NCBI GenBank assembly: GCA_012295275.1
Contig: CM022675.1
Span: forward strand, 17,360,001-17,424,000
Direction of reading: 5' to 3'
DNA from: Chrysomallon squamiferum
Taxonomy: Eukaryota; Animalia; Mollusca
DNA: 64,000 nt
In this document: positions 56,721-62,425 of the stretch, in pieces
Numbering within the stretch: position 1 is the first letter of the stretch
Layout: each line of letters starts with the position of its first letter
The notes under the pieces: model-generated
Databases searched by the model: none
The model's input: the letters and a program-made list of their open reading frames with translations, nothing else
Told to the model about the DNA's origin: nothing
Program-made: the position numbers and the translations under genes

Positions 56721-57418
56721 AAAATGAGCTAAACAAATAAATTAAATAAATAAATAAATAAATAAATAAAATCCTTTATCTTCCTTTAAAATTAGTTACA
56801 TGAAGTTTGTCGCTGAAAGTAAGCTGTCATAATAATAGAATAATATAATAATACATTACGTTTAGGACCAATAATGTTCATTAAGTGAACTTCAAAATGT
56901 ATTAATTAATAAATTTCATCAAATTCAATAAAAATAAATATGAACGATTCTACGTACAAAGTGTGTGCGTTAGTACATGTGTACGAATATGAGTGAATGA
57001 GTGTGCATTAATGTACCCATTCTTGCATAGACAGATCAGCATGATGTATATATTATATTGTAGATAAGTATAACTATATAATGGAAGGACATCCACCATG
57101 TAAAAAAAAGCCCAGGCTAGATCAAACTAAATATTAATGGGTAGTTTATTAGCTTTAGTTTGAAAACTTTCCTTGATGGCCGACAGGTGAAGCTAACAAA
57201 TAATGTACATAGTTTATGAAATCAAATTAAATGTAGATCGGAAATGTTATCGTTTAAAATGTGTTGTATTTTCTGGATTATCTCTAGTTTAAAATGTATT
57301 GTGGTATTTTGCTGCCCGGTTGAATGTTTATAATTCGTATCTGCCTTGAGCTCGGATTTCGTTTCAGTGACAGGAAATATGGAATATTTTAATATTATAG
57401 TGGTAGAGTGGCTAGCAC

Positions 57419-58310: not shown

Positions 58311-58621
58311 ACATATTGTTTATTCTCTTCTTCATCCGCTAAACCAGCATACTTTGAATATCGTTTCTGTTTCGTTCATTTGGCACTGGGTAGTATGGAT
58401 CTCCAGAATCGGTAGAATACTCTCTCACTATTGTTGTTCCATTGACATCTTTATTATACAGATGTTTATATTCAACAATTCTTGTAAAGTTTTCAGGACC
58501 CTGTGGGTAGTTTACGACGACATTGGGCTGGAAAAATGGCTGATTTAAGTGAATAGTTTCAAATTTAATAGACCGATATTCTAGCTTTTCCAGCCCAGAG
58601 GAAGCAAAGTATTAAATCTAA
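58311..58621 (-). pseudogene. Partial direct duplicate of the UDP-galactopyranose mutase coding sequence (matches ~59637-59946)
   Basis: Near-identical core encoding YFASSGLEKLEYRSIKFETIHLNQ...GDPYYPVPNERNRN, a 1-nt deletion near 58360 and a more diverged tail. No start or FAD-binding domain. Confidence 0.9.
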
Positions 58622-58755
58622 TAAAACGAATATTAATTGTTTATTTCTATTTATGACACACAAAAAAAAAAAAAAAAAAGAAGCCTACTGTAAAATGTTA
58701 CGAAAGCGAATAATACAGTTTTAGAAACAAAATGTAAAAGCAATGAAAGTTTATT

Positions 58756-60930
58756 TCAGCACTCATCAATATGAGGATAGCGGAATAATAAAGTCCACAT
58801 CCGTTCGATTATGTGACCAGTTATTGGATTGTTTGATTTTGAAAGTTCGACATACCATGATATCAGCAGGTTTCTATATAGAGACAATTTTCTTCGTAAT
58901 AAGACATCCGTTACTACGAACTCCCCTCGGTAATTACTGTGAAATTCTAAACAGTTTTGTTTAGATTTTGTAATTTGATAAAAATACTCACAAGTCTGTT
59001 GTTCAATTCGTTTAGCACTCCAGTCTAAGTAATCAGATTTTAAATCAAAACATTTGTAATCTCCAAATGAAAAGTAGTGATTTCTAAGAGTTTTGCTTTC
59101 AGAATAAATCCTATCTCTTTTTTTGAAGTTCAAAAGTTGTTTCATTTGATCAACAGCTTCAAAGATATTCATTGTTGGTACTTCTTTCGCCCCCTGAACA
59201 AATATGTTCAAATCAACAAACATCGACTGTTTCACCATCATGTGATACAACCACGTATGACCTTCTCTGCCAACGTTTGGCAGCGACGTTTGCTGAATAT
59301 TGCATCTTGGATACTGTGCTGCTAAAACAGCACCCTGTCGTACTTGATTGCACTTTTCATATATAAAAGTAATAACTTTATGGTTATAACATAGCTTAAA
59401 AATGTCTTTAGAAAACCAAGATAAATCTTCCGAACAATGACTAATGACAAGAGCTACAGAAAGTTTGCCATTTGCCTGAGGAAAAACTTCATTAGCTTCA
59501 GATAAACTCTTAGGAAACAGTTGTTTCTCTGAAAATGAAATATCAGAATAAGCTCTTTTAAACTGGTTGATGGCATTAAGAACTGCTTGATCCATATTGA
59601 AATATTTGTAACTGGCAAGACGACCAACAAAATATACATTATTTTGTTTTTCTTCTTTTTCCGCCAGAGCAGCATACTTTGAATACACGTTTCTGTTTCG
59701 TTCATTTGGCACTGGGTAGTATGGATCTCCAGAATCGGTAGAATACTCTCTCACTATTGTTGTTCCATTGACATCTTTATTATACAGATGTTTATATTCA
59801 ACAATTCTTGTAAAGTTTTCAGGACCCTGTGGGTAGTTTACGACGACATTGGGCTGGAAAAATGGCTGATTTAAATGAATAGTTTCAAATTTAATAGACC
59901 GATATTCTAGCTTTTCCAGCCCAGAAGAAGCAAAGTATGAATCTATGGGACCGGTAAAAAATGTCTTGCTAAAATGTTTAACTGAAATTTTTTTTGTACT
60001 GGTCAGATGAAAAAAATCGGTATTAAGATGAACTGAAATTAATTTGTGATTCAACATTTGTGAAATCATAGCAGTGTATCCGTCTCCAGGCAACGCCTGA
60101 TAGTCATCATCTGGAAAATAACGATCATCAAAATTGTCTCGAACTGGAATGCGTTGAAGAACTGAGGCATCCAAGTCTTTAGGATATTTAGACCATTGCT
60201 TGTATGTGTAACCTTTGAACAGTTTATCAAAGAGAACTTCTCCAACTCGTGCCTTGGCAGCTTCTTCTCCGTTCTTTGGACGGTCATTTCGTATCTGATG
60301 TTTTTTCAGCCATTTTTTCATTTCCTGCTGATTTTTTATTGATTCGCCAAAAAGCATATTCACTGTGACTATGTTGACTGGAATAGGAACGTAATTTCCA
60401 TCGACATTGGCGACCACTCTATGTTCATAAGGAATCCACGTTGAAAACTGAGACAGGTAGCGCCAAACAAGAGAATTTTTCGTATGGAATAGATGTGCTC
60501 CATATTTGGAAACTCTAATACCGCGTTCATTGATGTAGTCGTAACAGTTTCCTCCTATGTGATCCCTTTTCTCAATTATCAGAACTTTCTTTTTTAGAAG
60601 TGTTGCATGAAGGTGAGCTAGAACTGCCCCTGACAGACCAGACCCCACTATTAAAATGTCAGCAGATGCTATTTCCTTCTTGGAAAAATGTTCTGTTTTA
60701 TTTTTATTTCTTGATGTTTCTACTGAACGAGAGAGGTTGTTCATATGATTAGCAATAAAATCTTTTGTATCAGTTTCTGTCAAAAATATTTGCTGAGTTT
60801 TATATATACGATGTACTTCTAGGTGAGAAACCGGAAAAAAATTCGAAATTAATATCCAGCCACTTAACAGAGACAATGCTAATAGAAAAAATAAACATTG
60901 TTTTGTGTTTTTCATACTGGCAGTCCTCAT
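58756..60930 (-). CDS. glf: Membrane-anchored bacterial-type UDP-galactopyranose mutase fused to a C-terminal DUF3431-like domain (724 aa from the first ATG)
   Basis: Uninterrupted ORF. The track start at 60951 is TTG; the first ATG is at 60930 and the next at 60915. Hydrophobic segment CLFFLLALSLLSGWILISNFF. Glf motifs: ILIVGSGLSG, EKRDHIGGNCYD, YGAHLFHT, YTYKQW, RIPVR..FDDRYF, TGPIDSYF, LEYRS, FTRIVEYKH, GDPYYPVP, GRLASYKYFNMDQ. C-terminal motifs VISHCSEDLSWF, LPNVGREGHTWLYHM, IFVQG and GHIIERMW fit the DUF3431 pattern. Confidence 0.92.
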   Translation of the reverse strand: MRTASMKNTKQCLFFLLALSLLSGWILISNFFPVSHLEVHRIYKTQQIFLTETDTKDFIANHMNNLSRSVETSRNKNKTEHFSKKEIASADILIVGSGLSGAVLAHLHATLLKKKVLIIEKRDHIGGNCYDYINERGIRVSKYGAHLFHTKNSLVWRYLSQFSTWIPYEHRVVANVDGNYVPIPVNIVTVNMLFGESIKNQQEMKKWLKKHQIRNDRPKNGEEAAKARVGEVLFDKLFKGYTYKQWSKYPKDLDASVLQRIPVRDNFDDRYFPDDDYQALPGDGYTAMISQMLNHKLISVHLNTDFFHLTSTKKISVKHFSKTFFTGPIDSYFASSGLEKLEYRSIKFETIHLNQPFFQPNVVVNYPQGPENFTRIVEYKHLYNKDVNGTTIVREYSTDSGDPYYPVPNERNRNVYSKYAALAEKEEKQNNVYFVGRLASYKYFNMDQAVLNAINQFKRAYSDISFSEKQLFPKSLSEANEVFPQANGKLSVALVISHCSEDLSWFSKDIFKLCYNHKVITFIYEKCNQVRQGAVLAAQYPRCNIQQTSLPNVGREGHTWLYHMMVKQSMFVDLNIFVQGAKEVPTMNIFEAVDQMKQLLNFKKRDRIYSESKTLRNHYFSFGDYKCFDLKSDYLDWSAKRIEQQTCEYFYQITKSKQNCLEFHSNYRGEFVVTDVLLRRKLSLYRNLLISWYVELSKSNNPITGHIIERMWTLLFRYPHIDEC

Positions 60931-62425
60931 TGTCACCAAGATTATATACAAAAAGTTTTCAATAAGAATCCTTCAAGCATGGATATATCAAATCCGTAAT
61001 CGTGGTCTTTTTTGTGTGTAGGGTTTATTAAAATATATGTATCAGATTTTAGTATCAATAACAATAAAACAATCTTTTAAAAACTAAAAGAAATCGAAAT
61101 AGAAATTTAAGTATCAGGTTTTGATTTTTAAAGTTTGATTTTGTCTGAATTCAGTTTTTTTTTTTCTTATATAGCTATATCTTATGATCTTTCTTCTATC
61201 ATGATAAATCCTGAAAAAGAAGTAGAAATGTAGAAAGAACCTGTAAATATATATATATTGTTTCTTTTCATTTTTTTATTACCAAACCTTTCAGGAGTCA
61301 CTTAATACGACAACGTCAAATAATGTAACTGTAAGTATGTCTTGGAATACGGCTGACTGTGAACACACAGCTACTAAACTAACAGTACTGATATTAAATG
61401 TCAGCTTTACAAGAAAAGGTGTTTCGCCTCAGCCTGCTGACCTTTTTGTCTCGTGGTGCCATGATTCAGCTTGAATAGAGTATTGATTAAATGAGAAACA
61501 TCAGGTAGACTGTTGTCAGTACCCTGCACGGTAGAAGCCCGTCGACACTGTTATTCTAAGTGTATTTATTTACTTAATTATTAATAGATAATGTGATTAA
61601 TTACAACAAAGTGTTAGCAAAGCCAGTTTTTTTATATATATATATATAATTTTCCTAAAATATTGGTGAATGTTATTTTAAAATGAAAGTTTGTCTTAGC
61701 AGTAGCTAGACATATTGACAAAACAATAAAAATATGTAACAGCTACGTTCTTGGTGTGTGTGTGTGTGTATGTGTGTGTGTGTGTGTGTATATATTAGCA
61801 TATTTCTTTGTAAAACAGTTTGATATATATTGCATTTGCAAAATATATTGCTATACATGAATCCTGTGCGATTATAGTCATTAAGAACAAACGAATACTT
61901 TTTACTGCTAGAAACATAAAATGAAATAAAACTTACCGTAAGTCCACTAGCATGTTAAAACGCATAGGTAACTAGGAGTCATTGATCTAAACATGAAAAC
62001 ACGGAACACCGATCTACGCGAGTCAGTGGCCATGGCAATAAAACAACAATAACTAAGCACTGATTATACTGGCCTTCATACAGACAACCCCGCTTTAACA
62101 AACTCTATTTAAATCTTAGCTACAAACATTAACTTATCATGTCCAGCTTTCATTATAATTGTTATTGTTGTTTATTACTGATGCAATCGTATTGTTGGCT
62201 GAAGCATATTTAACAACATTGATAATGATAGTAACAATACTTTTTTAATAATAATAATTTGTAGTTTGATACAATGTCAAAATCAAAAAATAGCACAAGA
62301 AACAAAACAAGTTAAGTCGAAGCGATAAAGGTAGCCATATAGCCACTATTATTTACTTGGTAATTAAGTAAATTGAATATATTTCAACTGCTACAGTATG
62401 ATTTTTTTTTTTTTATATATTTCAG

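Follow-up and report, generated by a model that had tools for sequence, protein, structure and literature searches.

The window examined here is a stretch of 64,000 nucleotides from the genome of the snail Chrysomallon squamiferum. Its minus strand carries one unbroken open reading frame (ORF) of 724 amino acids at positions 58756-60930. The protein contains a prokaryote-type uridine diphosphate (UDP)-galactopyranose mutase (UGM) domain, and it is predicted to be a membrane-anchored two-domain enzyme rather than a plain mutase. Galactofuranose (Galf) is a sugar typical of microbes and is treated as a microbial signature. The features of the locus are as follows, with the basis of each in parentheses.

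58756..60930, minus strand: coding sequence in a single exon, for an anchor, a stem, a UGM domain, and a DUF3431-like domain of the GT-A (glycosyltransferase A) type (ORF and orthologue XP_041356356)
60838..60900, minus strand: predicted signal anchor, residues ~11-31 (Kyte-Doolittle peak after basic residues)
60670..60837, minus strand: stem of low confidence, residues ~32-87, carrying two sequons for N-glycosylation (predicted local distance difference test, pLDDT, and sequons)
59551..60669, minus strand: prokaryote-type UGM domain, residues 88-460, with the flavin adenine dinucleotide (FAD)- and UDP-Gal-binding residues kept (TIGR00031, structure, contacts)
60100..60117, minus strand: site of a one-residue insertion common to eukaryotic homologues of clades A and B (motif-matched domains)
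58771..59463, minus strand: DUF3431-like domain, residues ~490-720, with a predicted GT-A fold; putative glycosyltransferase (Pfam, Atlas, VIA)
59482..60668, minus strand: stretch 99.5% alike in a transcribed paralogue, residues 88-483 (RNA runs X8 and X9)
58323..58620, minus strand: recent partial UGM duplicate, residues ~330-414, without a start; gene fragment (self-comparison; contigs of runs X1 and X3)

The gene is a genuine single-exon host gene. Over 87% of the 724-residue protein, the orthologue from Gigantopelta aegis is colinear with it, and a paralogue's RNA contigs align without gaps across 59482-60668. Thus, the coding region, as distinct from the 5' untranslated region, has no intron, and the intron-free ORF of 2.2 kb described in the initial annotation is borne out. 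The AlphaFold model of the whole protein has a mean pLDDT of 84.3. An Atlas search with the full-length protein gave scores of 0.81-0.82 only, which are leads at most. The protein had been described at first as a plain mutase. The UGM domain stands, but the anchor, the C-terminal domain of 235 amino acids, and the partial duplicate of 299 nucleotides had been overlooked.

The ORF is genuine animal host DNA. The stretch was found in 9/11 of the read runs examined, which come from three studies. Both ends of the ORF run into non-coding DNA within single contigs, spanning 60639-61743 and 58570-59517 (from 58583 in run X3). The depth of these contigs is 7-8.8 in run X1, where unique neighbours have 7.1-9.6, and 127-146 in X3, where neighbours have 140-156. 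Run X5 agrees on the bridged ends, at a depth of 50-56. X1, X3, or X5 is possibly the assembly's own source. The GC content at third codon positions is 0.294 for the ORF and 0.282 for the window. The best homologue is XP_041356356 of Gigantopelta aegis, with 69% identity over 87%, located on a sequence of 40.8 Mb. A run from a second organism contains a homologue that is ~80% identical, C domain included.

The mutase domain matches TIGR00031 at residues 91-459 with 337.9 bits (cut-off 303.75), and both the YGAHLFH histidine loop and the GxGxxG motif are found in it. The Glf motifs are thus intact, as was first noted. The histidine loop has a single glycine (G-A-H), as in bacteria. The model fits the Deinococcus UGM (3HDQ) with a root-mean-square deviation (rmsd) of 1.4-1.5 Å over ~370 residues at 42% identity. 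Identity to the Aspergillus and trypanosomal UGMs is 12-17%, with a template modelling (TM) score of ~0.6. The eukaryotic type of UGM, as in fungi and trypanosomatids, was ruled out by the G-A-H loop, this identity, and this TM score. The prokaryotic type that had been assigned to the gene is confirmed by TIGR00031, the single-glycine loop, and 42% against 12-17% identity.

The contact table of PMC3624792 was mapped by hand, and 11 of the 12 UDP-galactopyranose (UDP-Galp) contacts in Deinococcus were identical; at the non-matching contact, F175, the snail protein has Leu. Matching UDP-Galp or FAD contacts include H146, H170, F238, Y241, T242, W246, R260, Y271, N365, R375, Y405, R437, Y443, and M446. 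The Campylobacter N-acetylgalactosamine (GalNAc) mutase 4MO2 scores similarly to the Deinococcus UGM against the domain. From its residues, the domain likely turns UDP-Galp into UDP-galactofuranose (UDP-Galf). While the UGM domain is a member of TIGR00031, the whole protein is a variant and not a stand-alone soluble mutase of ~370-400 amino acids. The Glf of Deinococcus radiodurans shares with the snail UGM its fold, the single-glycine loop, and those 11 substrate contacts. However, bacterial Glf proteins are soluble and have 367-399 amino acids (Table 4 of PMC3624792), whereas the snail protein adds an anchor, a stem, the insertion, and a GT-A-fold domain.

The Kyte-Doolittle maximum of the protein, 2.03 over 19 residues, lies at residues ~11-31 and is preceded by basic residues. 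From this pattern, we infer a type II membrane topology. The stem has pLDDT values below 50 at residues 43-57 and 65-80, and its sequons are at N65 and N77. A hydrophobic segment before the mutase is present in 11/12 clade A proteins and 7/8 clade B proteins, the clades being described below. It was found in 0/22 homologues from giant-virus metagenome-assembled genomes (GVMAG) and in 0/78 bacteria from GTDB, from which 80 loci were kept and the anchor was scored in the 78 with a measurable domain. This distribution argues that the gene was already an anchored fusion of eukaryote style.

The C-terminal domain matches Pfam DUF3431 (PF11913) with 24.1 bits, just below the gathering cut-off of 25, at an E-value of 3.4e-5 over profile positions 3-207 of 219. 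DUF3431 is also matched by 9/13 aligned members. In the Atlas, the C domain scored 0.96 and 30/30 hits were DUF3431. When folded alone, it has a pLDDT of 85.9. The best VIA-align match was mannosylglycerate synthase 2BO4 (Z 12.2, rmsd 4.7 Å, 188 residues aligned). SpsA (Z 10.9, rmsd 3.2 Å, 163 aligned) and C2GnT (Z 10.2, rmsd 3.7 Å, 191 aligned) were also matched, the latter at 16% identity, the highest of the 50 rows listed. Glycosyltransferases fill the top 18 rows, with Z from 12.2 to 9.8. The C domain is therefore predicted to have the GT-A fold of mannosylglycerate synthase and of the metal-independent C2GnT. GT-A enzymes have a DxD motif for metal binding or, like C2GnT, something metal-independent in its place. 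Across 222 C domains, N.GRE.H, F.QG, and GH..ER.W are conserved and all are kept in the snail domain; these motifs and the nearest Atlas clusters agree with DUF3431. The conserved F.QG and E709 are seen where DxD is not conserved. A comparison of the C-domain profile with PDB sequences gave no match to a solved structure (best E 0.36). The available listings of DUF3431 literature assign it no function. Among the best 150 C-domain profile hits, 23 carry UGM sequence (four of these are fragments), and the two domains are also fused in the reverse order (P0086 and P0079). A tree of the C domain only (222 rows, 175 columns) was poorly resolved. In FastTree, stand-alone DUF3431-like proteins (P0242-P0248, P0254, P0267, and P0280) are placed beside the gastropod C domain (0.83), and several of them have an N-terminal hydrophobic segment.

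There appear to be several related genes in Chrysomallon squamiferum. Their number and synteny rest on read contigs, for which depth is a rough guide. The mutase part of the gene has 2-3 times the depth of the ORF's unique ends, and X5 also has contigs ~83-85% identical at single-copy depth. Roughly judged, the genome carries at least three UGM genes. RNA runs X8 and X9, which belong to one study and were available as contigs that drop minor variants, each gave one contig on 59482-60668 with 6 differences in 1187 nucleotides. These contigs depart from the window sequence at both ends, and X5 has the same loose ends. Their positions correspond to residues 483 and 88, which are domain borders. 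A near-identical RNA contig that leaves at both borders points to a transcribed paralogue with a different anchor and C domain. Since the paralogues are near-identical only in the mutase and diverge at its borders, the pattern suggests gene conversion confined to the mutase domain. The partial duplicate at 58323-58620 lies ~135 nucleotides past the stop codon, with 254 nucleotides at 99% and 299 at 96% identity. Both of its junctions are inside contigs of X1 and X3.

Relatives of the gene were explored through trees. A total of 433 UGM domains were collected, and 158 near-duplicates were dropped to give a FastTree of 275 rows. In this tree, the window sequence is found with Gigantopelta and P0003 in clade A. 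Its sister, clade B, contains Hartaetosiga (a choanoflagellate), Bolivina (a foraminifer), Hondaea, and a protist-like contig. Among named organisms outside the animals, those nearest to the gene are choanoflagellates, Hondaea, and the foraminifer; their UGMs are anchored and mostly have the same fused C domain. The one-residue insertion is present in 33/335 motif-matched domains. Of these carriers, 31/33 belong to clades A and B or nearly duplicate a member of them; the exceptions are P0101 and P0112. An IQ-TREE analysis (LG+G4 without a mixture model) used 72 hand-picked rows, with the long-branch P0091 and near-copies left out. It placed the snail UGM inside a 59-row clade of eukaryotes and viruses (100/100) without 13/15 of the bacteria. 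Support was 99/96 for clade B and 68/93 for clade A. The fused proteins were also used for a tree of 53 proteins, with two of 55 dropped for their reversed domain order. There, clade A (18 rows, including the window and Gigantopelta) had 99/97, and clade B, including both named choanoflagellates, had 96/98. The named choanoflagellate sequences thus group with the stramenopile Hondaea and not with the animal clade (96/98).

The UGMs of Ciona and of bivalves were not in the trees and were not among the best 120 of either full-length search. Little can be concluded from the lack of named bivalves in a longer C-domain search, which failed to recover several of the proteins used as its input. P0118, from the brittle star Amphiura filiformis, represents a separate animal lineage of prokaryote-type UGM that groups with diatom and cryptophyte sequences. 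A hydrophobic segment at its N-terminus and a DUF5672 domain are also present. In addition, P0011, P0021, P0029, P0068, P0135, and P0149 are truncated at a similar point close to the mutase start, as if by an intron.

The best explanation is that this host gene encodes an anchored mutase and GT-A transferase that would add Galf to glycans of the secretory pathway, and that it was acquired from a microbial eukaryote or virus. As a whole, this explanation falls slightly short of an even chance. Type II insertion would place both domains in the lumen of the endoplasmic reticulum or Golgi. UDP-Galp could be imported by the host's ordinary UDP-Gal transporter and ring-contracted in place by reduced FAD. 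The fused C domain would then use the minor, labile UDP-Galf at once, and with such immediate use a dedicated UDP-Galf transporter, as in fungi, would be unneeded. Among the paralogues, the mutase would stay homogenised while the transferase domain differs, perhaps to suit different acceptors. The coupling is supported by the mutase sequence in C-domain hits and by both domain orders. A wider proposal, made tentatively and with less confidence, is that DUF3431 is an unrecognised family of galactofuranosyltransferases. The anchored fusion would then be a self-contained lumenal Galf machine of marine protists, their viruses, and some animals, and the small converted-mutase family of the vent snails, diversified in its transferase domains, may put Galf on surfaces that face symbionts.

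Several points weigh against this explanation. A reductant for FAD in the lumen is not known to us. In fungi, UDP-Galf is a cytoplasmic product, according to the available text of PMC4630932. Foldseek E-values for the GT-A match were weak (best 3e-4), a conserved DxD was not found among the 222 C domains and none is evident in the snail domain, and a shared GT-A fold says nothing on the donor sugar. Most DUF3431-like hits stand alone, and eight fused relatives have lost the mutase motifs and kept the C domain (P0091, P0212 from Choanoeca, P0240, P0241, P0249, P0252, P0271, and P0286). Both observations indicate that the C domain needs no mutase of its own. The mutase domains of these eight are possibly pseudo-enzymes. 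As a test of lumenal location, sequon density was uninformative (0.094 per Asn in clade A and 0.077 in bacteria). The sisterhood of clades A and B is weak, with 65/80 and 128/200 bootstraps in the 72-row tree and 93/200 in the fused tree. Of three approximately unbiased (AU) tests, two did not reject a vertical descent in common with choanoflagellates. The unique ends of the 58756-60930 copy were covered by contigs in 0/2 RNA runs, which is no proof of silence.

For the origin of the gene, we favour a transfer whose donor was a microbial eukaryote or a virus of one, which appears reasonably probable. On this reading, the donor would have been marine, the fusion and the anchor would have been in place when the gene arrived, and its arrival would have preceded the divergence from Gigantopelta; the date may be far earlier than the gastropods. 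A contaminant or a chimeric join in the assembly, for which the initial annotation had proposed a check of coverage and linkage, is extremely improbable. No single read contig extends from the ORF as far as the gene at a distance of 19.6 kb, and one DNA run is possibly the source of the assembly; however, in three runs, drawn from three studies, contigs cross either end of the ORF at a depth like that of the flanks, and the Gigantopelta aegis orthologue, the homologue in the second organism, and the host-like base composition all speak for the host. The donors first listed were a bacterium, an alga, a protist, and a large virus. Of these, a protist fits best and a bacterium is not supported. 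If a bacterium, for instance the symbiont of the snail, had been the direct donor, a prokaryote-type sequence with no introns and up to 60% identity to bacterial UGM domains would be accounted for, but this origin is very improbable. A tree joining the gastropod trio to 13 bacteria was rejected (AU, p=0.0006; all AU groups were chosen after the first tree was seen). None of the GTDB loci has the insertion, none of those measurable has the anchor, and the C domain is found among them only in a Parachlamydiaceae metagenome-assembled genome, in the reverse order. The gene could also descend vertically from an ancestor that animals share with choanoflagellates, with loss in most animals and no transfer into gastropods. 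The same anchor-UGM-C architecture and the insertion also occur in Hartaetosiga balthica and Choanoeca perplexa. Clade A with Hartaetosiga was not rejected on the mutase alone (p=0.082), nor was clade A with five choanoflagellate-side rows on the fused alignment (p=0.053). The six clade A proteins cut at one place, as an intron would presumably do in prokaryotic gene calls, indicate that clade A is old and eukaryote-encoded. In contrast, clade A with Hartaetosiga alone was rejected on the fused alignment (p=0.001), and the best trees place the choanoflagellates with Hondaea. Among the homologue matches listed, no named animal other than Gigantopelta has the fusion, and the UGM domain is described as rare in metazoans in the available text of PMC13390645. 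The UGM of Amphiura is a separate lineage, and placing it with clade A was rejected (p=5.6e-5). In the species-tree comparison first proposed, the snail UGM thus departs from the animal tree with respect to the other named animal UGM tested. Inheritance from that ancestor is unlikely.

Two further alternatives concern what the gene does. The 58756-60930 copy could be a silent or decaying duplicate, with the transcribed paralogue as the working gene. The RNA check was answered in part, since the paralogue was seen in 2/2 runs while the unique ends of this copy were not covered, as the contigs leave at the domain borders. A broken duplicate also adjoins the gene. However, the frame stays open for all 724 codons, the C domain retains its conserved residues, both variants called in the unique C part are synonymous, and the RNA consists of contigs from one study. 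A silent copy is quite improbable. It is less improbable, although still rather unlikely, that the mutase is active and the C domain transfers another sugar or binds glycans, or that the enzyme acts on microbial or dietary Galf in defence or salvage. The Z scores are tied across many GT-A families, and GlfT2 and GfsA, both known to transfer Galf, come no higher than 34th and 37th in VIA (Z 9.1). UGM is also fused to GT41, an epimerase, and DUF5672, DUF3431 is mostly stand-alone, and a defence role was suggested for the Ciona UGMs in the available text of PMC13390645. Against these points, the fusion recurs in both orders across protists and viruses, and a lumenal mutase would make most sense if its product were consumed on the spot. 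The anchored mutase and Galf transferase remains the preferred explanation for this gene.

The surroundings of the gene were also explored. The initial annotation had placed the ORF next to a gene with ~95 exons. This gene is real, but it lies ~19.6 kb away and is not adjacent; ~95 exons is plausible. It occupies 312-39131 on the minus strand, runs off the start of the window, and has an ATG near 39131 and a predicted signal peptide. At least 82 phase-1 repeat micro-exons are found in 312-33176, with further 5' exons up to the ATG. The micro-exons are of four repeat types in units of ~880 bp. Their in-phase reading has no stops and contains 39% Arg and 12% Trp. We take this gene to resemble a tandem precursor of cationic peptides rich in Arg and Trp, either antimicrobial-like or structural. 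The ORF had also been placed among microsatellites and remnants of long interspersed nuclear elements (LINE). The microsatellites are present, but the LINE remnants were not confirmed (no LINE-type Pfam hit in 7/7 fragments). High-copy repeats are indicated at 55300-56800, where the summed contig depth in X3 is up to 3900 against ~150. An ORF fragment in this region, 56089-56364, is presumably like LINE ORF2, although it had no Pfam hit and is not confirmed.

Bacterial-type UGMs have been reported in other animals. Ciona has two single-exon bacterial-type UGMs, KY21.Chr5.483 and KY21.Chr14.742, reported as horizontal transfers, and homologues from Mytilus, Mercenaria, Ruditapes, and Amphiura are included in Fig. 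S4 of the same paper (PMC13390645, available text). As in the snail, these Ciona genes are prokaryote-type, single-exon, and multi-copy, with no Galf function assigned. Compared by description, they differ in that a bacterial source is proposed and that neither an anchor nor a fused domain is mentioned in the available text. The supplement text of that paper does not contain the Gigantopelta accession. The Amphiura UGM is of another lineage and carries DUF5672 in place of the DUF3431-like domain. XP_041356356 of Gigantopelta aegis, 'UDP-galactopyranose mutase-like', has the same architecture, and its annotation is automatic only. In the available text of the Gigantopelta aegis hologenome preprint (10.1101/2020.09.23.308304), 'mutase' is absent and a lack of prokaryotic horizontal gene transfer is reported. 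The fungal Galf route, as given in the available text of PMC4630932, consists of a cytoplasmic UgmA/GlfA, the Golgi UDP-Galf transporter UgtA/GlfB, and the Golgi GfsA. The predicted end product is alike, Galf on secretory-pathway glycans. However, the route in fungi is divided among three separate proteins and its mutase is of the eukaryotic type, whereas one anchored polypeptide in the snail would do both steps in the lumen. The available texts of PMC8724618, PMC6994554, and PMC7773692 describe Galf in fungi, protists, and algae and do not mention it in molluscan glycans.

No description of a UGM-DUF3431 fusion, of this gene in gastropods, or of Galf in gastropod glycans was found in the open-access literature. 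The transfer of bacterial-type UGM into animals is already published, and the surprise is limited for this reason. What appears to be new is the anchored fusion of mutase and transferase, and DUF3431 as a candidate galactofuranosyltransferase. If the proposal is true, a widespread domain of unknown function would gain a testable role as a new glycosyltransferase family. There would also be a second route to Galf, with a lumenal mutase and no dedicated transporter, and Galf would be predicted in molluscan glycans. The likely source of some 'bacterial-type' animal UGMs would then move from bacteria to microbial eukaryotes.

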